64,000 bases of DNA from Moniliella sp. 'wahieum' (lineage: Eukaryota): NCBI GenBank assembly GCA_003971905.1, contig RSEE01000030.1, forward strand, positions 186,001-250,000. Reading direction: 5' to 3'. Positions 28,185 through 62,200 of the stretch are shown here, piece by piece (within the stretch, counting starts at the first letter, position 1; the number at the start of each line of letters is the position of its first letter). The notes beneath the pieces are model-generated. The model saw only the letters and a list, made by a program, of their open reading frames with translations. It was not told the origin of the DNA and ran no database searches. The translations under genes were made by a program, and so were the position numbers.

Positions 28185-28395
28185 TGTCAGGAGACGGGAG
28201 ATGGAGGAAAGGGGAGCAGATGGATTGTGGATACATCTATGGACGGACGACTGTGGAGGTATATGTACCTCCTAAGAAAGGGGGGCACAGTCGAGAGTTG
28301 GATACAGGATCACCCAACTGATAAGAATCCCGCCTCCATAGTGCTCATACGGGCCTAGTGGACCAAGCCCCCCCTAGTACCGTGCGAGTCTGTCA
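28185..28395. mobile_element. LTR-like repeat copy A (probable solo LTR, inverted relative to copy B)
   Basis: Starts TGTCAG and ends CTGTCA. Aligns by eye over its full length to the reverse complement of 29565-29766, sharing TGTCAGGAGACG, GCAGATGGATTG, GGATACATCTATGGACGGAC, CAGTCGAGAG and GCCTAGTG. Confidence 0.75.
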
Positions 28396-28399
28396 CGGA

Positions 28400-29564
28400 G
28401 CCCAACCCACAATTCAACGCTGCTGATGCACTGGTGCAAGGCCACATTGAGTCTCTCAAGCAGAGACTCTCTCATCGCCGCCACAAAGTGGCCTTTGTGT
28501 GGACTACGAGCAGTATCGAGTTTAATCCCATCTCCCCATGGCTCCGCTCCCTGGGCATTCGGCGCCTTCGCACAACCGACGATGACCCTGCCGGCGTACT
28601 CAACCGCGTGCACCCATTGCTGAAAACCGTTGTTCAAGCTGCATTTTGCATTCCCTCTCCGCTAGATCAACCTGCTGGTCTGCAGCCCTCGTTCAGGCGG
28701 CCACGGTCATCAACGCCTTGCCGCACCCGTCCTGCTTCAATGCCACCCCGCATCAGCGCATGTATAGCTGCTCTTTCGACGTTCCAGCCTTGCATCCCTG
28801 CGGCTGCCGGACTCATGATGGAGGACATGAGACCAGCTACTACGTCATTTCATCTTGACTCCAATTCGACGATGAATCGCTGGCACCTCCGCGTCTGCCG
28901 CAACGGTAAATGGACAACTCTCGAATCAAATAATGTCCGTCTCCAGGAAAATGGCTAGAGCCACGTCCCTTCTACTGTGGTCGCTTCCTCTCCCGCGCCT
29001 CCTCTCGCCCCATCCATCGTAGATGAGGACTTCTTATTGTGAGAACCTCGGAGCCTATGGCCCGTCGCCTCCCTCAGCGGTGCTACGTCCTCATCCACCA
29101 TCGAAGCCGACATGAACCTTCCTCTTGCCCCCCTGAGGGACGCCGCTGTCTCTTGAGCAAAACGAGAGGACCGCACCTTGATACGCCTCCAGCGTTACCA
29201 AGAACTCCAAGTATGCGAGCGAAGACACACTCTTCCCCGTCGCCTCGCAGGCTCTCTTTGTCTTCTTACTTGGCTGTGTCGCATCATTGGTGCCAAGTCG
29301 TCCGCATTGCCCTCGTTTACGACGACGTCTGCGCCTTCATCGTACCCACGTCCGGTACAAGAGAACGCCGCGTATGCGTCCTCCCAAGTCCAGCTCTTCA
29401 CCGACCTGACCTGCGCATTGTTCTTTCCCTTTTCTCACCCTGATCTATATTCCTTTGGATCGGTTGCAGGTGGCTTGTCCACTTCCTTGCCATCGACTCG
29501 ATCTCTGTCTACGACTTGGCCATTGTTGAAGGAGACCCAAAGGTTGGCACAGGATCGGTGGGAA
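28400..29564 (+). mobile_element. Degenerate Ty1/copia pol fragment (integrase core, possible downstream pol remnants)
   Basis: EFNPISPWLRSLGIRRLRTT..P.GVLNRVHPLL, then WSAALVQAATVINALPHPSCFNATPHQRMYSCSFDVPALHPCGC. This resembles the copia integrase pattern W..A...A....N..P......TP.......PD...L..FGC. The catalytic acidic residues are not intact. Confidence 0.7.
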
Positions 29565-29766
29565 TGTCAGAACCACTCCCTGCTAGGTGGTCCTTAGCTC
29601 ACTAGGCTGCTATGGGCACACCTTGGCGTGATTTCTGTCCGTTGGGAGATCCCCTTTCCACCTCTCGACTGCCCCCCTGTGCTTCTGAAGTGCATATATC
29701 TCCAGTCCGTCCATAGATGTATCCAATCCATCTGCACCCCTTTCCCTCATATCGCGTCTCCTGACA
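29565..29766. mobile_element. LTR-like repeat copy B (probable 3' LTR of the copia remnant)
   Basis: Perfect 6-bp inverted termini TGTCAG...CTGACA. Preceded by purine-rich GGTGGGAA, a possible polypurine tract. Confidence 0.75.
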
Positions 29767-31317
29767 AGGGCCCACTCCCCGTTTATCGAGCTTGAACGCT
29801 ATTAGCCGATGATCCGAACGGAGTTAGAGACGAATGACAGGGTCGGATAGGTCCTGGCACAGAACAAGTCAACTCTTATAGGATCGCAGCGGCATCCGTA
29901 CAGAGGAGACTGAAAGCTGGAGGAAGATCCAATACGGAAAAGGATACCTGGGCGACAAAGGATCCGAGAAGACTAATAAGAGCTGGCCGCTGTAGCAGAT
30001 CAGTGGAATAGTTGCAGGTGAACTACTATGGAGTAACGCGGGTGTTGTCTGGTCGGTCAAGGATGGATTCGGAAGGAGACATATGGTTTCTTTTTACAAA
30101 ATGACCGGCTACGGGAAGAACAGGAACAAAGGCTCTACTACAGACGGAACAAATTTAAAGAAGAACATATATTCAACGCCGTCTCGAAAGACGGAGGAAT
30201 AAAGGTGAATGGCCTTCAATTGAACCAAGGAATACAGATCAAGTAGGGAAAGCTTCCCTCCCGACAAGAATACAGTCAACCACGAAACAGGCCCTAAGTA
30301 ATAGGCAGGTTGTCCGCCCTCGCAGCAAGACCGTAAACGGATTGACGAGGCCTGAGGGGAGAATATCCCAACGAGAGAAAACGAGACGGCCTGATGAGGA
30401 AACGGACGTCAATATCCGGCAGTCCCACTTGCGCTCAAGACCGAAGACCAAGAAATACTTGAGTTAGTTGGAATAATATATCAGGAGGGACTCAAAGCTC
30501 ACGCACAGATTTCCTCGGCCGTACGGAAAGGAATCGATCTTGGTCGCGTAGATCGCAGGAAGCATGACCTGTCTAGGCCCAAGGGAGTAGATGGATTGTT
30601 TAAGCGAACCAGACCACAGTGGCCCGTATTAACACTGATGATCTGTGGCTAGTCACGATTGGATGTGGGTTATAGATTTCGGAAAGAACTCTGGGATCGG
30701 GGTTAGGGAGGCGAAAAGGGAGCGCGTAGGCTTCCCCTCCCCCTTCTCCCGGCAGCCCATCTTCCCCCCCGATAGATAAAAAGAGGAAAATGTGGGCCTA
30801 GGGAGCCGGAGGAGCAGAAGGACGAGAAGAAGGGGATGGCTTGAGTGGCAGCCGGGACGAATGACCTGGATTTGTGCATGGCCACACTATTGGCCTACAG
30901 GAAAGGCATACAAGCCCTGTCCTCACACAGCTCATCGAGTGTTGGCAGAACGTTGTCTTCTCTCTGGCCCTGTGGATTCGATACAGGTGATGAGAGGACC
31001 GCTTGACAGTTGGATGATGCGGAACGAATGTTGAACCTCACTGAATACTGAACACTGTAGAAGATTATAGAGACCTGGCAGTTGACAGTGTATTGCATGG
31101 CACACATGAACTAAAGAAGAGGCTATAGTATACTAGTCGCAGGTATTTACGCCTGCTGTGGAACTCGATTTACTATAGCCCACAACGCGATGAGCATGCC
31201 TTCGCCCGACCGTATGGGGCGCCTAAGTTTACATGCGCCCACGGATGATATAGGCACAAGAAACTTGAGAATTGGGGGGGGGGGAAGAGGAGAGAGGGTC
31301 TCATATTTTGTCGTCGG

Positions 31318-34222
31318 CAGTTACCGGTTACCACTGCAGTCACCTGGTTGGTTACCGGAGGGGGTTCCAAAACTGACCATCAACTGAAGACTGAAGACGT
31401 ACTACTTTTGTTGTAAGCGCAAGATCCATTATTGGAGTCACTGAGCACTGCATTTTTGAGACGTTGGGACTATGAGGCGCTGAGAGGTTTTTGGAGGGCT
31501 CAGCGTGTTCAGCTCGGCAGACTCAGCCGTGAATAATGGCGCGGCCGAGCGCGCTGAGCGCTGAGTTGAGCGAGGCCGACCCACACATCCCGGGCCTTCT
31601 TTAGTGTCAAATTGCACAACATGCATGTGGTCCATAGTTTGTCAATCGCATTATGCATCATGTGATGCCACCGACAATCGGTCGGAGGAGACTGGGGAGG
31701 TATGTGGTGGGATTGGCGGGTTATAATACGGGTTTTATACCGGTTTATATTAAGCGACGGCACCAAGGAAAAAGGGATCGCTTTCCGACATGTCAACAAG
31801 AGTGATTTAGAGGCAGGTTACATGTGGGTCCCTACGCGGACACAGCTGTTTAAGCCATCAACGCCAACAACGTTGAACGTTGACAGGTGGAGGTCCGAGG
31901 GCTGTATAGGACCGTGACACAGTGCACATGGTAGGAAAGCCCTGTGGATGTTGGAAATGGTCATGTTGACATAATGACACTGGGATTTCCTCAGCTTTTG
32001 CCAAGTCGCGTACCATATATTTGCACAACAGTTGTTCATGCCCCTGATTGTTGTCTGCGGGTTTGCACCGCGCTCTCCCCTCGCATTGGGGCCCCATCGG
32101 CCCTATATCTCCGCTGTTGTCTATATGATGGTCGCATGGAATGGCGAGGAATGCGAATGGCCGAAAATTCAACGCACTTGCGGGGATTAGATCGATTATC
32201 GATTATTGCTCCACGCATTCTGCGGGCCGCATGGAGGAGGACGGAAGAGAACGTGGTTGCTGGCTGGCGAGGACGGAATGATTGTAGGACAGGCTATGGT
32301 GCTGGGGCGTGTGCTGAGGCCTGAGGCCTCAGGCCTGAGGGGGGGTATCTTGAACGTTCAAGTTGAGCCTGCTGTTAGAAACGTGAAACCCGAGGCTCAG
32401 CCCAAGCGCCCAGGCAGGTGTTGAGCCCGAGGAGATCCCAGAGAGCTCTCGGATGTTGAGACGCTCAGGCACACATCCAGCCCTCCTTGAAGCAACTGAG
32501 CTTTGCAATTTGAAACCTGCCCTTTGACTCGGCTCGCATCCATATCAGCCCACCCATTCCGATGCGGGGTATCACACTTGACGCGCTGTCCTTGAACGTG
32601 AAACGCCTTCTGGCAATACCAACGCGTCATGCGACTGGCAACAGATGTGCATGCAACCCAGCAGCGCCAAGTGCTCGGCAGTTCTTCCGGTGGGGGCGGT
32701 GGGTGGGGTGGAGTGGGGTGGGGTGGCCGGTGGGGTGGCCGTCGGTCGACGTTAGATCTTAGGTCTTCCAGCGACCGACCAGCGTGGCCATAAATGGGGC
32801 GACATGTGACATGGTGTAACCGAGGGGGGACGTTGGACTGCTGAAACAGGTGTGAGGTATTCGTTTCTCATATTCCTGTCGCTGCACCGTCCGCGTCTGG
32901 AGGGAGTTAGCGTTTATTTAAGTTAAACGTTAAACGTTAAAACGTCAAGCGCTAAGCTTAAATAACGTTACACGTTAAAACGTTAATTCCTGCCGCCTAA
33001 GGCCTAAGGCCCAAGGCGCGAGAGCCTGTAACATGTGAGACCGCCTCGGAGATGGAAGTGCACACGACAGACTATTACTGTGGTTACAGGTACCGGTTAC
33101 CGGTTACCGGTTACCGCGCATCGAAGGGGGCAGAAGAGAATGCTGCTGCTCCCTCAGCCTGAGCTCAGCTTAGCGCTGAGGCTCCGTACACTCAACTCAG
33201 CGTCCCAACCAACACTCAACGTGCTCAGGACTCGCAAGTCCGTTTGGAGGGTTGTTGATACACGTTGTGACGTACACGGTGGCAGTTAGTATATTAGTGC
33301 GGGTGCCAAGGCAGGCGCGACGTGCTATGCACTATGGGCCATGCGCAGCACAGCAACGTGGAAGCGTGCGCGCTGTCGTCCCAACCCTACCCGCACAGCA
33401 GCAGTGTGTTACGATGCGCCCGCTGCGGCGATGCAGCTACGGAGCTTGACTAACATGCATCATGCGCCGCTCGTCACGCGTCACTCCCAAGCATCATGCA
33501 TCCTGTCACGTCATGCGCATGTCTTCTTCCCACGCAAGAATGTCGTCGCTGAGAAGTTCCACTCGAGCCCAGAAAAAAAAATGGCCCTAGGATTGGGATG
33601 GGATGGTGCTGAGCCTGAGCCTTCTTCCATTCCCTCGCTCCCCCGCCTTCCCCCGCCTTCCCCAGCCCGAAGGGCTCACGTAGGGTCGGACTTGGCCAGC
33701 GAGTTGACCAACAGGCTGAAACGGCGAATATCGACTATCGACTATCGACGATCGATGATGGATGAATCGGGATCATCGATCATCGATCATCGATCATCGA
33801 CATCCGATTGGCTGGGGTTGGCTCTGACATGGTGCACCGCAAGGCATCCAGATGGAATGGCCCAATGGATAAACACACGTTGGGGCCAAGCTCCAAGACA
33901 GACCAAGACTACTTGACATCTCCGGCAATCGATATCATCGACCGATCCTCAGAGCACCGGGCACGAGCACTGGCGTGAGCCAGTGACTAGTGACTTCATC
34001 GGGCAGCGTGCTGGGTGGCAATGTCTGCTCGCGAAACGGCGACGGGCGCTGGCCATCCGATCCAGCGTCTCAGCCTCAGCGTCTCTGCCCCGCCATGCTG
34101 GCTCAGCGTCAGCGCGCAGCCGCGCAGCTGCGCAGGCGCAGTGCCAGGCACGCGTGACATCAGATGCCGATGTGCATGTGACGCGTGACGCCCAAGCCGT
34201 GTGCTGACGCGTGACGCGTACC
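31318..34222. repeat. Mosaic of short palindromic-word arrays (GGTTACC, CTNAG, AACGTT, ATGCAT, ATCGAT, GTNAC)
   Basis: Examples: 32922-32987 (TTAAACG)n; 33082-33115 (GGTTACC)n; 33151-33183 CCTCAGCCTGAGCTCAGCTTAGCGCTGAGG; 33729-33808 (ATCGATC)n; 34150-34222 repeated CGTGACG. Confidence 0.85.
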
Positions 34223-34437
34223 GTCGATGCGGCCGGGGCCCAGGGGTCGCGGCGATCACACGTCCATCAGATCAGCCGTCGCCCCACCACGCCTTCTGAT
34301 TTTTCCAGATTGCAATTTTTTTTTCCCGCCCCACCCCCCAACACTCCACCACCCGCCCCACCCGATCTACCCCTTTCGCACCCCCGGCGCCCATGGCTGT
34401 CGGTGCCCCCCTCAGCCCTGCGTTTCCTGCCCGCCCC

Positions 34438-36000
34438 ATGTCCTACGCGCCAGCAAGCAGGAGGCGCTCCAGCGCCAAGCCGCCCCCCGACTGCGATGCG
34501 GACACTGCTGGGCTGTGGATGTCCGACGAGCTCTGCACCGTTTGTGCCGAGCCCGTCGTGGCCGGCAGCCTTTTCTGCAGCGCAAAGTGCCGCCGCCGCG
34601 ACCTGGAGCCGCAGACTGCCCCCCTACCTCCATCCGCCGAGCTCACCCAGGCCCACGAATCTGCCGGTGCCGCCGGCGCTACCTTCAATGCTCTTCCTTC
34701 ACCCTCACTTGCAGCAACAGCCTTCCGCCGAGGACATTTCGCTCCGCATGCATACCCGCGCACGCCCCAGCAACCCCCCGCTCCCCGCCCCTCGGCTGCA
34801 CGCTCCCCCAAACGCCTCAGCATGGCCAGCATCAGCCCCAGTGTCAGCGAGGGCGAATCCGAGCCGCCTCCTTCCACTCCTTCGCCCCAGATTTCTGCCC
34901 CGAACGGCCAAGGCTCCGACCTGCATCCGCTGATCAAGTCCCCTGCCATGCGCTTTGTACGCAAGCCCAACGCGACCAACATGCCTGCTCCGGTTCTGCT
35001 TGCCAGCCCCGCCTTGGGCGCTTCCACCCGTCGGCCACCCAGTTCGGCCAGTTCGACGCCCGCATCCCCATGGATGACAATGGACCACCCACCGCGTCCT
35101 TCTTCTCGCCCGCCTTCGCGCACGTACCAGCCCCACCCTTCTGCCTATCCTCAAGCGATTCTGGAGGACGATGCGGACTCGGATGCGGCCTCGTGCATCT
35201 CGGGCTTTGACTTGGGCCCCGCCGCTCGGGACCATGCGCTTCCGGGCCACGTGCAACTGTCGGCCGCTCCGGCCACCTCAACTCATGCGCGGCCAGGATC
35301 GCCAGTGGTTCATCGACGTTTGCCCAGCGACTCGATCGTGGCGCTGCGCAACGCATTAAATATGGCGACGATCGAGCGGCCTCGTGCGGCACATGCGACC
35401 ACCGACTCGGCCGTGAGCGAACTACGGGGACGACCGACGTCCGCGCGCGCTCGGTCCTTCTGTCAGTCCCACCCACTGGGAGACGGAAGAACGGGGCCGG
35501 TCACGCACCACGGACGCACTGCGCGACCGTGCACAAGCTCGCCGCGCCACCTCGTCCCACGATGTCGAGTTGCACGGCCGCCTGGCCTCTCGCTCCCGCT
35601 CCTCCCTCGCCCGCGCGGCAGAGGAGCTGGATTCTCGCCGTGGCCGCTCGTCCACACGAGCACCGCGGTCCATTTCCCGCCGTCGCAGTCCGTCGCCCCC
35701 GCGACGCGGCGACCGGCGCTTAGCTTCCCGCGTTCGTGAACGCCTGCAGCTGGACCCGGCGGTGGACTTGGGCGCGTACGCGGTGCCAGCGGTACGCTCG
35801 ACGTCCAGTGGAGACGGGCGGATGGCGTGCCGGCGAGCGCGTTGGCCTTGGCCATGCGCAGTGCCGCGCCACAGGAACCTACGCTGCCGCAACCGCGCGC
35901 GCAGGTGGACTCACCCTGCTCCCCGCGCGAGCGTGCATGCAGTTTGACTGGTGCCACGTCCCCGCTCACTTCGCTCTCCCGCTCTCGGCCTTCCAGCCGG
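34438..36000 (+). CDS. Ecl1-family-like protein (N-terminal C4 zinc finger plus Ser/Pro/Arg-rich tail); 3' end uncertain
   Basis: CTVCAEPVVAGSLFCSAKCRRRD matches the CxxC-x~9-[YF]CSxxCRxxD pattern of fungal Ecl1 proteins. The rest is low complexity. Confidence 0.65.
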
Positions 36001-51700: not shown

Positions 51701-53643
51701 ATAGGCTGGTCAAGGAGGATGCTCGCATCGGGGTCATTGTCCGTGTTGCGCACTGTGTGAACAAAATCAGGCAAAAAGGGGAGCGTAGGGGCTTGGAAAG
51801 TGAACTTGCGCCCGGCATACTCGCGGGGGCGAGGAGGCAAGTCAGCAGGATCGCTATAAAAAGCAGGTTGGTCCACTTGCCTGGTTAGGCCAAACTCGTT
51901 CAAGCTGTCCATCACCATCAGGCCGTTGGGGCCGGAAGAGAGAACTGCCAGGTAACCGGTTGTGATCGGCCAGCAGCCCGTGAGGGGCCGGGCGAGAGGC
52001 AAATGAAAATGAAAGACTTGCACCAGTATCGTGCCCATCTAGCCTGGACCGCTTAAACGGGGGTGAGGCTGGAGGTGAGTCATCCTCTCCTTCCAGTTCG
52101 CTTTGGCGTAGAGGGGAGGAACGATTAGGAGTAAATAGGCATCAAAAGCTCGCTTGTGAGGGGTAACACTTCCGGATGATGAAGCCCCAGAACGGCGAGA
52201 AGAAGGGTTAGCATCTGAATAACCATCTCCTTCACCCAACCATTCTTCCCCTTCCACGTCCTCTTCTCCTTCTTTCCCTTCTTCCGCATCATCATCTTCC
52301 TCCTCATTCACGTTCTGTAATTCCAAGGGAGGCAGGTCGGAATTGCGCGCCTCCATAGCCTGAAGCGTTTGGGCAAAGTGCTGCGTTCGAAAAAAGTCAA
52401 GATCTTGCTGGGTTTGAGGAGGAGGTAATTCGTCCTGATCTTGCAGCTTCTCTTCTTCCACTTGCTCCACATCTGGTTCGGGGCAGGGGGAGGCACAGTC
52501 ATGGGAGACGATGACGGCATCGCGCCTAACGGAGACGAGGGCAGCTGCCTCGATTTCCGTATGCGGGGAAGTGGGGAAGCGGAAGATTGAGACGATAAGA
52601 ACCTAGCCTCGTTCTGAGCTCGAGCAGCTGGAGAGAAGGGTTGGACCTGGATGTATAGGTGGCAGTGGGGCAGACAGACTCAAAAGCGGTAGGGATGGCA
52701 TGGGAAGCTTCAGGAGGAGGGCGAGCGAAACCAGGAACCGATCGATGCGTGTATGAAGCAGGTGTCTGTCTGCCTCAATACGGTTATACAGCGAACGCCA
52801 GAGTCGTTCGCTTGCCTGCCATTCAGGGCATTCTCCCGGCCCATAACGTCGGTGTTCACCGGTCGCTGCGGGAGGGGGGATAGTGGGCGGAAGGCCTGCT
52901 GCGACGCGGCGCGCCGATTCTTGCCGCCACAGAGCAGTGAGGGACGGGACCAGCCTCTGATCGGATGCAAGTGGGGGTTCGTTCAACTTGAGATGTACGT
53001 TTCGCTGGGTCAAATCGTGACGATTGAGAATATCAGTAACATGAGCATCAACCTCGATAGGACAGTAGGACTGCTTGGCTTGGTAGGCGTGCAGCTGGCA
53101 AGCCGAAGCAGATCGCACCCATACACATTAAAGTCGAGCAGCCACTGCAGCTGGAAGCGAATGTGAATCTCGTAAGGCTGGAAACGCGTGTTCATTACAC
53201 GACCGGAGAGAAGGATGGTGTGGATGCGCGAGTGCAGCGAAGGATCGTAGAAGGAGATCTTGAGGAAATACGACCAGCCACGTGATACCCATAGAAAGGT
53301 ACGGCCTTTACAAGCGTGATGGAGTGGAGGTAGCCATCGGAATCGGATGGGGGCGACGGAAGGAGGAGGCGAGGGCCGCATTGAGCTGGCGGTCGAGCTG
53401 GGCAATATAGGCGGCGGCAAACTCGGGCTCGAGGCGGTGAGGGTAGGGGATGTAGCAGTAGGGATACGCGCCGTGCAGATGCACGCACACCGTCTGGCAG
53501 TCGTCCGTTGTCCCGTACGCTCGCAGGATGGGCACGCGGCGTGCCCTGATACCCGGGTCGTCATGCAGCCCGGCGAGAGGGCATGTTCGAGATGGGTTAG
53601 CCGCAGCACAGGGCAGGCGGGTCGACGCGCACGCCAGACGCAT
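48747..53643 (-). CDS. REV3: DNA polymerase zeta catalytic subunit
   Basis: N-terminal VPILRAYGTT...VHLHGAYPYCYIPY and FQPYEIHIRFQLQWLLDFNVYG. Core motifs DPDILVGYNI, SRGSQFKVES, VLDFQSLYPSMMIAYNLCYST, ANVTYGYTSATFSGRMPC, YGDTDS, KKRYAG, AERVPY. C-terminal CysA/CysB (CSVC..CLDC; CTSC..CASFVC). Intron near 49245-49321. Confidence 0.96.
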
Positions 53644-53966
53644 CGGATGCAGATGGGGGTGGTGCTGGGGGGAGCGAGGATGCGGTGTGCCGGCAGCCAT
53701 GCCGTGGCCGCGGGCGGAGGCGGGGCGGTGGTGAGACGGCGGGACAGACGAGGAATGGGCGGGTGGTGGCGAGAGGCGATTTAAATGGGCGCGGCCTAGG
53801 CTGGGTGGATCACCGTCTATAAAATGCGGCCGTCCGACCGACAATTTCATTTGCCCCGCCAGCGCGTCTTCGTTCGGACGATTCCGCTCGTGGGGCAGCA
53901 AGTGTCCAGCATAACCTTCTTGCCGAACGCCTGCCGCCCCTTCGCCCCGCCCCACATCCCCAGCTG

Positions 53967-56900
53967 ATGCGAATCCTTGCCGCTCCCTGCTTGGGCGTGC
54001 TGCCGCCGCCTCCTCCGCCTGCCGCGCCTCCCTCGCCCGCGCCTCCCTTGCCCGCCCCGCCGTGGCCGCAGCAGCCCTTTCCCCGCGGCCGCCGCACCGC
54101 CCACTCAGCTCCTCCGCCGCCCTCGCCACCACCCACCACCACCACCTGGCTGTGTTCTCTCCGCACCCGCGCCCTAGCCCAAGCCCAGGCACAGACACAG
54201 TCCCAGTCCCGCACCCTGGTGCCAGCCCTTCGCTCCGCTCGGCCCGCCAGCGCCGCCCGTCTCGCCACGTCGGCCGTGGCACAAGCCACACCGGTGGCCG
54301 ACGCGGAGCAAGAAAGCGAGTGGCTCCGCCTGCCCCGTCACATTCGCCCTGCCCACTACGACTTGATCGTCAAGTCCGATCTCGAGGCGCTTACCTTCCA
54401 TGGTTTCACCATTACCGTCGACGTAGTCGAGGCCACCGACCGCGTGACGCTCAACGTGGGTCCCAAACTCAAAGTGAGCAAGGCCCATGTGCGGACCGCC
54501 GATGGCCACTCGATGCCGTCCTGCCTCTCTCCCTCGACCAGCAACATGAACGGGCAACGATTGTGCTCCCTGAGAAACTTGCAGTTGGCACCAAGCTACA
54601 GTGAGCATCGCCTTTGGCTCCGACCTGGACAACTCAATGGCCGGCATGTACCGCTCCACTTGGGCCCACGAGGGCAAGAGGGTTTCTATGCCCTGACGCA
54701 ATTTGAACCCACTGCGGCTCGACGTGCGTTCCCCTCGTTTGACGAGCCAGCACTAAAGGCGACAGTGAGCTTCCGCATGGTGCACCGTACCCCTACTGTT
54801 GCGGTGGCCAACATGCCTATCAGCCAACCGGCTCGCCCCATCTCGCTGGCGGAGCAAGACGAGTTGCTGCGGTTATCGGAACTGGGCTTGGATACCACTT
54901 CCATCGTGTCACCGTTGCGCAAGGACCAGCCTCCATCGGAAACCGAGTTGAAGCAAGACGAGTGGTCGCTTACCTCTTTTGATCAGGTGCCCAAATTATC
55001 CACCTACTTGATTGCGTATGGCAACGGCCCTTTGTTCACCTCACTTCCTCTTACACATCGCCTCTGTCTGGCGAAAAAATTGACCTCAAGATTTACACTA
55101 CCCGGAATACATTCATCAGGCCCAATTTGCCCTCGATTGCAAAGCGCGCGTGATGCCCGAGTACGAGAAGGTGTTTGGGATCGCCTATCCTCTCCCAAGC
55201 TCGACACACTTGTTGCGACCGACTTTGATGCCGGCGCAATGGAAAACTTTGGGCTGATCACAGGTGCGCATCCCATCCGCTATGTGCCTGTAAATGGAAT
55301 ACTGATCTCCTTGCCAGGCCGTACTTCCATTTACCTTGTCGACGAGAAGAAAGGCGGATTGAACTCAAAGAAGTTGTGTGCCAGTGTGCAGAGCCATGAG
55401 TGCTCCCACCAGTGGTTTGGTAACATCACCACCATGGAGTCTTTCCAAAGGTACGTTCTGTCATCCTGTAGGTAACCTCGTCCCGATCTAACGGTCTCCA
55501 TCGATCAGTTTGTGGTGCAAGAAGGCTATGCACGCTGGTAGGCGAGGTGATTATTTTGGACCGGTGTTGGCCAGAGTGGCACTCGGACCGCGAGTTTATT
55601 GTTTCCCACTTGGCACGTGCCTTGGAACTTGATGCCAAGCGGTCCTCTCATCCGATCCAAGTCCCTCTTCGAGGAGAAAATGTCGAGGCGGCAATCAACG
55701 AAATCTTTGATGCGATTTCCTACTCCAAGGGGCGTCGGTGCTACGCATGCTGAGCAAGATGGTGGGTGAGGATGTGTTCCTCAAGGGAACTTCCATCTAT
55801 CTCAATAACCACTTGTTCGCCAATGCTACCACGGACGACCTCTGGAAGGGCATCTCGGAGGCTTCCGGTCTGGATGTCTCAGCTATTATGAACAACTGGG
55901 TTCTCAAGCAGGGTTCCCCGTCTTGACTGTGACCGAGTCGGATGACAGCATTACCGTGCGGCAAAACCGCTTTTTGGCCACAGGTGATACCAAGCCCGAG
56001 GAGGACGAAACCTTGTGGTATGTGCCATTGGGACTCAAGACCATTTCGGCCACGGGGAACCGCAGGTGAACCATGAGCTGGTGCTCAACCAGGAGCGAGA
56101 GGTTACCATTCCTTTACCGCAGGCCCAAACAGCTGCATGGAAGCTCAACGCCGACACTGTTGGTGTGTACCGCGTAGCCTATTCCCCGCGCGCCTTGCGC
56201 TGCTGGGTCAGGAGGCAGCCAAGCCCAACTCTCTTCTCCCTCGAGGACCGGGTGGACTGGTAAACGACGCGCACACCTCGCCAAGGCCGGGTACGGGGAG
56301 ACGTCGGGCACGCTCAATCTGCTCCAAACGCTCTTGGGAGAAGCTTCCTTCTTGGTCAACTCGCGGCCCAGGTGGCCTTTAGCGAACTCAACTCGGTTTG
56401 GTACCAAGAACCCGCCAACGTCCAAGCTGCGCTGCGCAAGTTCCAGCGTGCGTTTTGGGCGCCGAAAGCCCAAGCTCTGGGCTTTGTGGGCAAGCCCGAC
56501 GACTCGGTTGAAGTGCAGCAGCTGCGTTCCTTGGTGCGCCCCCTTTCCCCTAGACCTCGCATGTGGCATCTATTCTGACTTTTTTTCAGGCCATTGGCGG
56601 CGCCGCCACTGCGGAAGACGAGTGGACGCTGAACGAGATTCAGCAACGCTATGCGGCGAGCATGGCTGGTGACGATCACAAGTCCCGCCCGACCTCTTGG
56701 TGCCTATCTACATGAATGCTGTCAAGAAGGGAGGCGAGAAGGAGTACGCATACCTCTACCAGGTGTATGGCAACCCACCGACGCCTGCCCACAAGGTAGC
56801 GAGCATGTATGGTCTGTGTGCGACCGAGGATCCAGCGCTGCTTGCGCGCACGATTGATTTCCTCTACTCGGGTCAAGTGAAGGAACAAGATTTCCTCCAC

Positions 56901-57213
56901 TTTTTCCGCGCGCTCTCCTCGCGCCCCGGGGCGGAAGGTGCTGTGGGAAGCGACGCAGGCCCTGGGGCGAGTTGACCACCAAGTTTGCTGGCAACTTTGG
57001 TATTAGCCGTCTGGTTGAATCCTCGTTTGATACACTTACTACCGAGGAAGAGGCCACCAGGTCACAGCCTTCTTTGCCAACAAGGACTGCACTCGCTTCA
57101 CCATGGCCCTGGGCCAAGGCCTCGAGTCGGTTCGCACGCGCGCTGCTTGGCTCACCCGCTCGCGGGATAATGTCAAGGTTTGGCTGGAGCAGAACGGATA
57201 CCTGTCTAGCTGA
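53967..57213 (+). CDS. M1-family zinc aminopeptidase (Ape2/Aap1, puromycin-sensitive type); start uncertain
   Basis: RLPRHIRPAHYDL, TQFEPTAARRAFPSFDEPALKA, GAMEN, HECSHQWFGN (HEXXH), SSHPIQV, IFDAISYSKG, KLNADTVGVYRV. Introns ~55264-55317, 55451-55508 and 56534-56589. The Arg/Ala/Ser-rich N-terminus suggests a mitochondrial presequence. Confidence 0.94.
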
Positions 57214-57445
57214 TCCATTCCCAGCATCTACACAACTGCCCCTCTCCAATGCATGGCGTGCGGGAAGAAAACGTCATTTGATGTAGTCGCTCCAGCTAAG
57301 GGCGAGAGGGGAGAACCGAAACACAGGGTGCGTGCGTGAGAGGAGGTAGGCGCCTACGAAAGGGAAACCGGATTGCTTGCCAGAGAAGATAGAGGAACAT
57401 GACTACGAAAACTGGTAACATGACCAGGGTAAACGTCGTCCCTCT

Positions 57446-58141
57446 CTAGCGGTCCTCAGCCCACTCGTTTTCTTTGCGCACCTGCGCCTCTTCCTCTGGC
57501 GTAAAGTCATTCTGAATGTTGAACACCTTGCGAATCTCCTCCACGCTCTTTCCTTTGATCATAAGAGCGACCGTGATGCAGCCCGCATCAAGGAGGGCGC
57601 GAATGTCGAGATAGTTGGCTGCCATAATGATCTCACACAGCATCTCCTGGTCCACGTTGAGGAACTTCTTGTCCCACTCGTTCACCTCGGGTGCCGCCTT
57701 GCGCGCCTCATCAGTCTCGTCCGACGAGGGGAGTGGGTCCTTGCGGTGGTGCTCACAGTACTCTAGCACCTAGTCACAGAAAGCACAGCATCAACACCTA
57801 CACATATCGCGGCCAAGTAGCCAGAGAGTGCGTACCTTTTCAGTACAGGGGCTGTGACATTCGGCAACGGGATAGGGAGGTCCGTCTCGCCAAGGTCTGA
57901 TCAAGCCAAGGGCAAAGAGGTCAGCAATTGAGGTTTAATTGGGGCTTAAGTTTGATATTGAAGTCCAGCGGTCAATGACCAGGGAACTCAGGGGCCGGGA
58001 TGGGGAGGGTGAGGGAGCACCAGGACTGAGAGTGATCGATGAACAGACATACCCTCAGCATCTGCTTGATGAGCCCAGACCGCTCGCCACGTCGCGGGCG
58101 ACGTCGAACGTCTCGTTGTCGGCAGTGGTGAGTTTGACCAT
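57446..58141 (-). CDS. SKP1: Skp1 (SCF ubiquitin ligase adaptor)
   Basis: Exon 1 [14 protein letters not shown]...SGLIKQML; exon 2 [15 protein letters not shown]; exon 3 VLEYCEHH...AANYLDI...[38 protein letters not shown]. Two introns at ~57898-58051 and ~57770-57835. Confidence 0.96.
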
Positions 58142-59293
58142 GGTGGCTGGAAGGGCAGGGAAAGGGGTGGTGGGAGGGGGAGGGCAAGGCATTCACGCGG
58201 CGCGGGTGGGGTAACGCCTTATTCCGCCGACGGGCGGAAGAGGAGGCCATGCCGAAGCGTAACCCTAGTGTCGAGTGAGCAGAGGGTGTGATCGATGACA
58301 GGAGCCGGCCACGCAGCCACAGCAGCGGGGGCTGCCCGGCCTGCGCGTATAGTTGGCAGGGGCGGGGCTTGGGGGCAGTATGCCCAGTAGGAGAGACGGT
58401 GGCGCAGGCTGCTGTTGTCGATTGGCCAACTGAGGAGGACACCGAGCAATGCCGTGGGTACACAGAGCTCATTTGGACTGTGGGCGGGCCAACGCCACTG
58501 CTACACAGCTTAGACCTCGCTTACGCCTCGCTACCGCGGGGTGAACGCATCCGTCGAGCTGTGTGCCCCTGTGCAGAGCGCACGCAAGACGGTCGAATTA
58601 ATGATCGACGCTGAGCGCAACGTAGAGCCTCAGGCTGGCGGAGTGCTGGGCCTCAGCGCCTCAGCGCTGAGCGAATGTACGTTGGACTTGCAGCAGCAGG
58701 GTAGCCGGTAGCCGGTATAGCGCAGGTACTCTCGCGCGCAAATGAGGTTATCGATATCTCGATTGCCGATTAATGACAGCTGTGGCGAAGGCCTCTGTTG
58801 CCCGCGCACGCCCACCTTGTAAGCGTCTCGCATCTTTTGAACTCAGCCGCATGGGCCTCCGTGCGACTGCTAGCAGCTTCGTCAGTCCGGGGGCGCCGGG
58901 TACCCAAGCATGAGCAGCTGCATCGAAAGAGCTGCAGTCGACTAGGAGAACTGCTATAGTACAGCCCGGCAAAATCCAGTCAGCCTCGGCAAGCCCTGTC
59001 CCCCCTTATTGTTCCGCCATCATCGTACCTCGCATCCTCCCCGCTCTCAGACAATAGCCAAGCCATCTTCTTTCCGGCCTTCTCTTCACGCGGCCCAGCT
59101 CCGCAAGGCCTCGGGGCAGTGCGAATGCGCAGCCCTCGCGTCGAGCCGGACGCGCGCAGCCAGCCACTAGTCACTGTCTCGCTGCTGGGCCACAAGGTGA
59201 CATATATGTCCGACGCGTCGGATCACCCCACCAACCAACCAGCCAACCCACTTCTCTCGCCACCACCGCCAAACAGCCGTAACCTACTACACT

Positions 59294-62200
59294 ATGACGT
59301 TTACACCATTCAACCCCCGCGGCGCCCATCAGCACCAACACCCTCGGCTCAGACGGCCCCCTCAACCGTCTCGAATGCCCGCCGCACCTCCCTGCTCATC
59401 CTCGGTCGTCGTCCAAGTTTAACGCCCAAGCAGCAACCATCTGCCACTGCACCCGCGTCGACGCGGACACTGCCTACCGCATCTGCGTCTCCATCCGCAT
59501 CCCCATCCGCATGCTCCCACCCCCCATTGGTATCCCATACATCCCTCTACCTCCCCCTCCTCTCCGCCCGAACTATCATCAATAGCGCCCTCCGTGCCCA
59601 TGTCCGGCGCGTCTGCCGGGCCTCTGATCCGTCCCGTCCTACCTCAAGTCCAGGCCAGTCGCCGCCCGCCCCACCACCAACGGTTTGCCCAACACGCCCG
59701 CTAACCACGGCCGCATATCGGCTTCTCCTGCTGGTTGCGACCACCTCATCCATCGCCACCAAGCCAGAACCTACCAATGCGCATCCTACCTCACATTCCC
59801 ATTCTGCTTCTTCCCGGGCCGACCAAACTGCTACTTGGTCGACAACCAGCTCGGCGACCGCGCGTTCCAAGCCGACTACCGGTCCAGCGAAAAGAAACGC
59901 GAGTTCAATGACCCCCGCTGGTAGGGCCGTGGAAGATTGGCGCGCTAATCGGGACTGGTGCGAGTGGTACGTGGTAGCAGGTGTACAGTGAGGATGCTCC
60001 CCAGTGACACACAACTGACCTGCCTCTCTTGCTCTCTTATCAGGTCATGTTCGCTTGGTCCACCATGTCAAGACGGGAGTCAAGGCTGCTGTCAAGGTCA
60101 TCCCACGGCACCAGTTGGCCACCAAGCTGGCCGCCAGCGGGTCCGGGCCTGAGGTTCAGAAGCGCCTTCAGAAGATGGAAATTGGCATTGAGCGAGAGAT
60201 TATCGTAATGCGTCTGATCAAGCACGATAATCGCTGTCTTTGATTGATGTGTATGAGAACGAGAAGGTACTGTACCTCATTATGGAGTACGTCGAGGGGG
60301 GTGAGTTGTTTGACCACCTTGTTGCCTCTGGCCGCCTTCACGTCGACACAGCTCGAGACTACTTTCGCCAGATTATGTTTGGTGTCGACCATTGCCATTC
60401 GTTCAACATCTGTCATCGAGATCTGAAGCCTGAAAACCTGTTGCTCTCAAAGGATAAGTGTCAAGTCAAAATCGCCGATTTTGGCATGGCAGCTCTGCAG
60501 CATTCAGGACGCATGCTGGAAACGTCATGTGGCAGTCCCCACTATGCCTCGCCGGAAATTGTGAGCGGCAAGCGCTACGTGGGTACAGCTACCGACATTG
60601 GTCCTGTGGGATCATCCTCTTCGCCCTCCTCTATGGCCGATTGCCGTTTGATGACCCCAACACAAGTTCTCTCCTTCGAAAGGTCAATCCGGTACTTCGA
60701 ATTCCCCCCTTATCCCCTGACGAAGCTGGGAAGGACCTAATCCGTCGTATGCTCGTGGTTGACCCGCGGAAGCGGTATACGATGGCGGAGATCTTTCATC
60801 ATCCATGGTTTACCAACTATGGACGTTTATCGTCTACCAACCCAGTGTCTGTTGTAACAGACCAAAGTCCAATTGAATGTCCCTTGCTTTGGGAGGAGGA
60901 TGACATCTTTCGTGGCCTCACCTACCTCTTCCAAGGGTACAGTGAGAGAAACTCCAAGCCGAGTTGTTCGCCCGATGACACACAGCCGAAGCGCCTCTAC
61001 CGTCTTTTACTCAAAGATCAGCTTGCGGCCGAAGAGGAGGAAGATGAGGACGAAGGAGAAGACACTGTCACTACATTCTCCAATGGATCAACGGACGTTC
61101 CAGCAGCTGGTCTGTCTCCATCAAGTGACTCGACCCGCACATCCAAAGCTCTTAGCTCTCCTTTGACTTCCTATACACTGATCCATCACCTGGCGCCAGC
61201 CCCCTACCCCTACCCACGACCTAAAGACCAATAAGCTGGCCGATTCCACCGCCAGTGGCAAGGGGATACCACTGCCACGTACGGGCCTTCTCAAGGAGCT
61301 GATGTACTAGGGGCGGAAGCTTTAGCATCGCTGCAGACCTACACCATGCGCCAAACCCACGGACGTACGCATTCCTTTGCTACCTCACCCCCCGTTTCCC
61401 CTTCGGCTGCATTGGCTCTAGAACAAACGGGCTACGCCCATCACCGTCCCGCTTTCCCCCAAGTCCACCTGCCCATCCATCTCCTCTGGTTCTGTTCCAG
61501 TTCGATTATGGAACGTCCTCCTTTCCTTAGCCGTCCGCCCATCCCGCCTACTTTCATGCGAGAAAGAGGCGCAGTCCTCGCTCCCAGTTCCGCAAAGACC
61601 GCTAACGCGATCCCCGCTCAATATACCGTCCCTCAAGTAGGGGACAGCGCGGCGGCGCAGCTTTTCTTCAAGGAAGTAGCAGCGGAGCTCGCCCTGATCC
61701 GTGCCGAGGGTGGCAACTCCAAATGTGCCAATGGTCTTCCATCTGGCGTTGAGAAGACACAAAGCGTGGGTTCCTGTTCCACATTGGGTCGAACCCGCCA
61801 ATCTTCGCACCCCGGTACCCCCTTGGCGCAGACGTCTGCCCCACCGCAAGCGGCTGCCCCCCCGACTGTTGCGCCATCCAGTCTAATGGCCAAACCCTCA
61901 CTTTCGGCCCCATTGATTCTACCTTATCGGCTCCTTCCACTCCAGCAAAGGGCGCGTTGCGCTTACCTAGCTCTAGTCGGCGGGCCTCCCTGAGCAGCAC
62001 AACTAACTGGGTTCGGTCCGGTGCCATCACGCCTCGAAGTGACCAATTCCAAGATGCGGACGAGGACGAGCCGGAGGCAGAAAATCAGGATGGGTTGGCC
62101 GAGACCGGATCCTTGGCCCCCTCGGTTCCCTCGGCCTTTCCTCCTACCCCCAGATCGGTCACCCCCGTATCCCATGGTAGGACCAGTGCCCTGGCCGCGT

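Follow-up and report, generated by a model that had tools for sequence, protein, structure and literature searches.

The array stretch and its genomic setting

The window analyzed here is a 64-kb stretch of DNA (contig C30, positions 186001–250000) from a 69.5-Mb assembly of 223 contigs, and the nearest named proteins to a sulfite reductase segment come from the Ustilaginomycotina (Tilletiaria anomala, 81%). A second, colinear copy of the window is present on contig C13, with long blocks that are mostly 88–96% identical, and from this resemblance we read it as the other haplotype. In window positions, which are used below unless a contig is named, a 2.9-kb stretch of short palindromic repeats (31318–34222) lies within the 8.6-kb interval that separates a minus-strand SH3 gene from a plus-strand ORF (34393–35739). 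The earlier note labeled this ORF Ecl1-like; an ORF with a Cys motif is present, but its identity as Ecl1 is a lead only, with atlas scores of 0.80–0.81 and no Ecl1 Pfam match at E ≤ 0.1. A 2-base haplotype indel lies just 5' of the Cys motif (34514–34517), and the start of the ORF is uncertain.

Several other sequences lie in or near this interval. A 1.58-kb element at 28185–29766 ends in inverted repeats of ~200 bases (TGT..ACA), has a 2-base duplication (AG), and resembles PlavakaA as portrayed in PMC12730594. Positions 29900–30740 belong to a dispersed repeat with ~40 matches across the assembly at 66–79% identity. The segment 29928–32011, and with it 31318–32011 of the array stretch, has no partner in C13, which carries sequence there that looks copia-like by eye. 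Opposite 32490–33060, C13 (205297–211158) contains insertions of 5 kb and 233 bases; each has TG..CA ends and a 5-base duplication, as might be expected of a spacer in which insertions accumulate. At 53000–60999, the haplotypes differ by 0–1.8% substitutions yet by 8–27 indels per kb, suggesting that long-read errors remain uncorrected.

One rule underlies the arrays

All ten word blocks that had been described in the stretch were found in place, and the palindromic mini-repeats are confirmed as real. First, in comparison with 20 dinucleotide shuffles, 5-mers matched 112 times at a lag of 7 bases (3.0 expected) and 48 times at a lag of 14 (2.8 expected), with at most 26 matches at each of the other lags from 2 to 30. 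Second, 7-mer palindromes centered on TNA numbered 43 versus 9.2 in shuffled sequence, whereas other symmetric cores in the stretch were at chance (observed/shuffled: ANT, 10/9.3; CNG, 12/14.7; GNC, 17/14.6). Third, the stretch contained 24 exact 12-base scar matches, counting both strands, versus a mean of 0.025 and a maximum of 1 in 200 shuffles, although these exact scars cover just 196 of its 2905 bases. A single rule is common to the blocks: T-N-A recurs every 7 bases with any 4-base palindrome between, so that the words read XY-TNA-Y'X'.

This rule replaces the separate single-word codes that had been proposed. The spacing, which had been called irregular, is 7 bases (11 of 22 tandem-repeat rows have period 7 and three more have period 14), and the apparent flips of orientation are mostly changes in the central base of a self-complementary word. 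Two-unit scars occur at 31319–31332 (TTA core, spacer CCGG, no C13 counterpart), 31553–31566 (TGA, GCGC), 31649–31662 (TTA and TCA cores that differ in N, spacer TGCA), 31872–31885 (TGA, ACGT), 32194–32207 (TTA, TCGA; shorter in C13), and 33982–33995 (TGA, CTAG). Another two-unit scar at 32996–33009 (TAA, GGCC) is followed by a degenerate third unit that is missing in C13, and the one at 33027–33040 (TAA and TGA cores, spacer CATG) is accompanied in C13 by one more 7-base unit at 33037. A four-unit array at 32313–32340 has spacer GGCC, with the third core in the flipped form TCA; its place in C13 is taken by a single TGA and a 23-base gap. The compound array at 32922–32986, which is matched by a 27-base gap in C13, starts with three TAA units with spacer ACGT (32922–32942) and continues with degenerate units and other spacers. 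Three exact TTA units with spacer CCGG (33095–33115) form the core of a GGTTACC array at 33082–33116, two units (14 bases) of which are missing in C13.

More degenerate arrays follow. CTNAG units at 33151–33183 include one scar (33168–33181, spacer GCGC) and gain an 8-base unit in C13; units with TGCA spacers at 33452–33522 include one scar (33472–33485, spacer CGCG), with an extra 7-base unit in C13 at 33503; and CTCAG units at 34063–34089 keep the 7-base spacing in a tandem-repeat row of period 14. The array at 33725–33804, which differs in C13, has TCGA spacers and four exact TCA units (33771–33798), and two scars with TGA cores and spacer CGCG (34177–34190 and 34203–34216) span 34177–34216, where C13 has one scar and a 26-base gap. 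The GCGCAG block, previously counted as part of the mosaic, is an ordinary period-8 CGCGCAGC repeat outside the rule (34113–34139), as are TCCCCCGCCT and the G-rich GGTGG repeat (32689–32741), which is longer in C13.

A widespread pattern in which only TNA is fixed

Of 11 arbitrary 10-kb stretches taken from other contigs, nine contained tandem pairs of TNA-palindrome 7-mers. Across 374 kb, the spacer was palindromic in 344 of 875 TNA pairs at a spacing of 7, compared to 3–7% in the other 15 frames, and all 16 palindromic spacers were used. The same N was present on both sides in 278 of these 344 pairs, and the pattern ran into one flank in 184, both flanks in 91, and neither in 69. Among 202 reconstructed sites, no target consensus was detected beyond TNA, and N followed the background.

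In 464 kb of one contig, we counted 371 arrays (0.8 per kb), which were clustered (mean 2.3 and variance 12.7 per 2.9-kb tile). The stretch described above, with 16 arrays, is surpassed by two of 159 equal tiles (24 and 19 arrays); it is one dense example of the pattern rather than a separate system. Only two of the 371 arrays fell in the 134 kb called coding by our own rough Markov model, which also supplied gene ends and misses low-complexity genes. By extrapolation, there would be ~55,000 arrays if 0.8 per kb held across the two-haplotype assembly. We found no description of a TNA/7-base scar pattern in the literature, as covered by a search in which subscription journals were thinly represented.

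The unit event is visible between haplotypes

Comparison of C30 with C13 over 348 kb of alignment, in which gains and losses are unpolarized because no outgroup was used, revealed 23 sites with XY-TNA-pq in one haplotype and XY-TNA-pq-q'p'-TNA-pq in the other. N was the same in both units of all 23 pairs, the empty allele held one copy of the site, and this empty site was non-palindromic and outside any array, although ~4 adjoined older units by eye. No filled/empty pairs were found in this alignment for the control cores ANT, CNG, and GNC. Haplotype indels of 5, 6, 7, and 8 bases numbered 91, 79, 110, and 50, respectively, giving a peak at 7. Of 43 seven-base indels with exact flanks, 14 were 5- or 6-base direct repeats around mirrored filler, 17 were plain duplications, and 12 were neither. 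Either side of the TNA could be used, at some sites both sides had been used, each with its own spacer (C30 402995 and 500515), and several arrays of the stretch differed between haplotypes by whole units.

Counts in 574 kb at non-palindromic sites define the unit further; in these counts both strands are included, the classes overlap, and expectations come from other frames. A NN-TNA-NN 7-mer followed by two mirrored bases and the last 5 bases of the 7-mer occurred 321 times (9.9 expected), and the forms that end in 6 bases (56 versus 3.4) or the full 7-mer (39 versus 2.5) were also in excess. By contrast, plain 7-mer duplication without the mirror was not enriched at TNA (86 versus 108 expected in 574 kb), and scars with both ends mirrored (period 11) were absent from the same 574 kb. 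The duplicated unit stops at 7 bases, as 41 TNA cases had length 7 and three had length 8; one case of the 9-base scar was polymorphic between haplotypes. In sum, a symmetric 7-mer is duplicated, and it shows no consensus apart from the TNA at its center.

Births and lengthening appear to differ. Two mirrored bases cannot arise by slippage, and births at non-palindromic sites are therefore not slippage events. Among 71 three-unit arrays, one spacer was repeated in 62; the spacers were mixed in just nine, in three of which both flanks fitted, which suggests that slippage does much of the lengthening.

Arrays as proposed excision footprints

A fixed-length, symmetric duplication combined with a flush mirror is the anatomy of a target-site duplication repaired through flank hairpins after excision: the scars have a direct duplication of fixed length around the joint and P nucleotides that mirror the flank end without a loop. 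We therefore propose, with a probability of roughly 0.7, that a cut-and-paste DNA transposon with a 7-base, TNA-centered target, an agent deduced from its products, left the arrays as stacked excision footprints.

The proposed pathway has five steps. First, an element would insert at NN-TNA-NN and duplicate 7 bases; the unit length and center are observed, and the element is the presumed cause. Second, at excision each flank would be sealed as a flush hairpin, as by RAG or Transib, which would explain the observed zero-loop mirror. Third, a host nuclease would open the hairpins, mostly 2 bases past the tip, leaving 4-base palindromic overhangs and thereby the two mirrored bases that we see. 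Fourth, end joining would place the overhang of one end on the other copy, in most cases at the T of that copy, to give period 7; less often, 1 or 2 more bases would be kept, a probable route to the period-8 and period-9 products observed. If both flanks were opened at +2 and an overhang joined to the recessed end of the other, a period-7 scar with the same N, left- or right-handed, would result, and hairpin openings at +1 or 0 would give periods 8 and 9. Fifth, because a scar would leave two TNA targets and a slippage-prone repeat, further hits and slippage could build arrays of 3–7 units, and signs of both are seen. The arrays would then be mutational debris, left in a long spacer where insertions are tolerated or to which they are drawn, and no function would be needed.

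Microhomology gives modest support to the end-joining route. Terminal pairing was found in 95 of 229 isolated period-7 scars versus 29% expected, and XY equaled pq in 9 of 55 period-9 scars (9 of the 34 that were non-palindromic) versus 8%; the corresponding period-8 test was confounded, as 46 of 87 controls also scored. Two variants of the pathway were rejected. A 3-base duplication plus bases from the element end does not fit, as the spacer followed the local flank in 275 of 344 pairs, and annealing with a mismatch predicts a flipped N in 50% of births, compared to 0 of 23 found.

The search for a resident element

An inverted-repeat scan of 964 kb (~1.4% of the assembly) for elements with 4–11-base duplications gave 70 candidates with duplications of at least 4 bases; among the 58 listed, which include all 18 with at least 5 bases, none had a 7-base duplication centered on TNA. 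At 24 alignment junctions of insertion polymorphisms, none of the duplications was 7 bases and TNA-centered: the elements there had TG..CA ends and 5-base duplications, one had CAC..GTG ends and a 2-base duplication, and the rest were ambiguous. Finding 23 polymorphic scars and no resident 7-base element in the DNA scanned or at these junctions counts against the transposon reading. At C30:622859–631881 lies a 9-kb element whose inverted ends are very long and whose duplication is TTAA.

Profile searches for Harbinger (PF13359), hAT (PF05699), KDZ, and MULE (PF10551) transposases gave no match, a weak negative because indel errors disrupt reading frames and because two controls, including that for hAT, were silent as well. 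Transposase_21 (PF02992) gave three matches in the genome, on contigs C17, C34, and C127, one of them above the cut-off (E 1e-12), which indicates that a transposase of the kind expected for the CMCT clade is present. A 5.1-kb polymorphic element at C13:351656–356773 has CACGGGCG ends and a 2-base duplication, and its left end lies one base after an NN-TNA-NN 7-mer. One of its ORFs has a CACTA-like motif by eye, and its four ORFs matched no Pfam transposase family. With the CACGGGCG-element end as query, 39 matches were found, mostly subterminal, and the terminus was not seen at the other 11 loci. In sampled DNA, CTCACTG followed NN-TNA-NN in 9 of 121 cases, which is near chance, and a genome-wide pattern count for a candidate element end gave 412 versus 238; the first 100 places included no pair consistent with a duplication.

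The scarcity of insertions would be explained if a transposase or domesticated nuclease cut NN-TNA-NN with a 7-base stagger and the hairpins were resolved at once, in a hit-and-run event that involves no resident element. The hit-and-run idea is familiar from work on RAG. The 23 polymorphic scars, set against the lack of any such insertion in the 348-kb alignment or the 964 kb scanned, favor this proposal; the small fraction of the assembly sampled and the possibility that large insertions in compact spacers are purged fast weaken the argument, and we consider hit-and-run cleavage unlikely.

Template switching, regulation, slippage, and artefact

Short-range template switching during replication or gap repair, in which a nascent end copies back at least 2 bases and re-anneals upstream, is a less likely source than hit-and-run cleavage. 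It would yield local inversion plus duplication, as observed, and could account for the central-base G/C flips found in 28 of 371 arrays. It gives no reason for the use of T-N-A only, for a TNA-centered unit that stops at 7, or for a loopless mirror, and CNG and GNC cores, which would pair better, show nothing. To our knowledge, template switch mutations are not tied to a fixed trinucleotide or unit length. The strict T-N-A center, the 7-base limit, and the zero-loop, 2-base mirror are better fitted by footprints of breaking and rejoining. Of the suggestion that the stretch records template switching or micro-inversion, the local duplication plus inversion is borne out by the filled/empty haplotype pairs, and polymerase template switching itself fits worse than break-and-rejoin.

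The alternative suggestion of a cis-regulatory or chromatin code, here a selected arrangement of TNA half-sites at 7-base spacing, does not hold up well, and we regard it as very improbable. The clustering of arrays, the position of 369 of 371 outside coding-state DNA, and the proximity of the richest clusters to what look like missed low-complexity genes speak for it. Against it, a binding code is unlikely if any of the 16 spacers is allowed and no consensus extends beyond TNA. Moreover, the arrays are not conserved between haplotypes: they diverge by 5.2% substitutions, some of which are alignment noise beside indels, and 16% gaps, compared to 4.2% and 3.8% within 100 bases of arrays and 1.6% and 0.6% in coding DNA. 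No constraint above that of neighboring spacer DNA was found in this comparison, in which 127 of 248 arrays were identical between haplotypes. There was also no 5' excess under the rough gene model that misses low-complexity genes, with 181 arrays nearer a 5' end (174 kb) and 169 nearer a 3' end (148 kb). Any effect on expression is directly testable with the filled and empty alleles.

Hairpin-aided microsatellite slippage of chance palindromic 7-mers has slimmer prospects still as an origin. The repetition of one spacer in most three-unit arrays and the plain duplications among 7-base indels agree with it, but plain 7-mer duplications are not in excess at TNA and slippage has no source for the two bases gained in births at non-palindromic sites; these births rule it out as the origin, and it stands only as a lengthening step. 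An assembly or base-calling artefact is extremely unlikely: 3040 one-base indels in 348 kb give the assembly an unpolished look, but the arrays avoid coding DNA and occur in both haplotypes, which were assembled separately and show substitutions and unit numbers of their own.

Comparison with known systems

Microsatellites that arise by slippage are born by plain duplication of existing bases, which is not what the births here show. Short-range template switch mutations are described as local inverted copies with small duplications (PMC5453318). Ustilago maydis has 10-bp repeats that have been suggested to be transposon footprints (PMC4081816); like the scars, they are small, dispersed in a smut genome, and read as relics of past transposition, but they are 10 bases long and are presented, in the accessible part of that account, without a comparable rule or hairpin anatomy.

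Among cut-and-paste transposons, hAT, MULE, Transib, and RAG all form hairpins on the flanks (PMC5499845, in part). PIF/Harbinger elements duplicate 3 bases, compared to 5–7 here. MULEs have longer duplications and mostly precise excision, which exceeds 90% for Muta1 in the same study (PMC5499845), and precise events would be invisible in scar data. hAT elements duplicate 7 or 8 bases, a length that agrees with the 7 bases seen here, and hAT7 of rust fungi shows that 7-base duplications occur in basidiomycetes (PMC12730594, excerpt). According to PMC5873905, donor sites repaired after Ac/Ds excision carry short palindromic insertions, which are short in Candida; these palindromes have as their center the complement of the base adjoining the element, and the footprints are more varied (28 types in 128 clones). 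On that description, Ac/Ds palindromes have an odd center, whereas the mirror here is flush and even. Odd spacers of 3 and 5 bases were near expectation (193/753, expected 0.255; 39/568, expected 0.065), and of eight odd classes in the scar-length count, two showed a roughly threefold excess (21 versus 8.1 and 15 versus 4.5) and none approached the even classes. On these counts, hAT geometry was rejected.

The closest likeness is to Transib excision and to the coding joints of V(D)J recombination. The main position at which Artemis opens hairpins is +2, 2 bases past the tip (PMC2175297), and a flank hairpin opened in this way would give the two mirrored bases seen here; the scars differ in being fixed across a genome. 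EnSpm/CACTA and Plavaka elements belong to the same clade as Transib and are present in this genome. Elements of this CMCT clade, Transib included, duplicate 2–5 bases as reported in PMC12730594, and fungal EnSpm/CACTA and Plavaka elements are in accord in PMC12810828 (CNEST, 2 bases; CNIRT6, 3 bases). The CAC..GTG element in this genome likewise duplicates 2 bases, unlike the 7-base scars with a T-N-A center, which lie outside the range reported for the clade.

If the excision-footprint reading is true, tandem repeats can be born from transposon traffic with a readable signature, flush-hairpin transposons extend to a 7-base target, beyond the 2–5 bases reported for the CMCT clade, and the scars would chart where insertions were frequent in the past and how hairpins are opened and ends joined in this fungus. 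We hold more tentatively, at somewhat less than even odds, that the agent was an undescribed CMCT (RAG/Transib-like) transposon lineage with a 7-base NN-TNA-NN target that entered and left the genome tens of thousands of times, each time leaving one near-invariant P-nucleotide scar, and that these scars seeded a new class of palindromic microsatellites and rewrote long spacers in front of regulatory genes. Such a lineage would have left, across the whole genome of a basidiomycete, a natural record of the way hairpins are opened and ends are joined.
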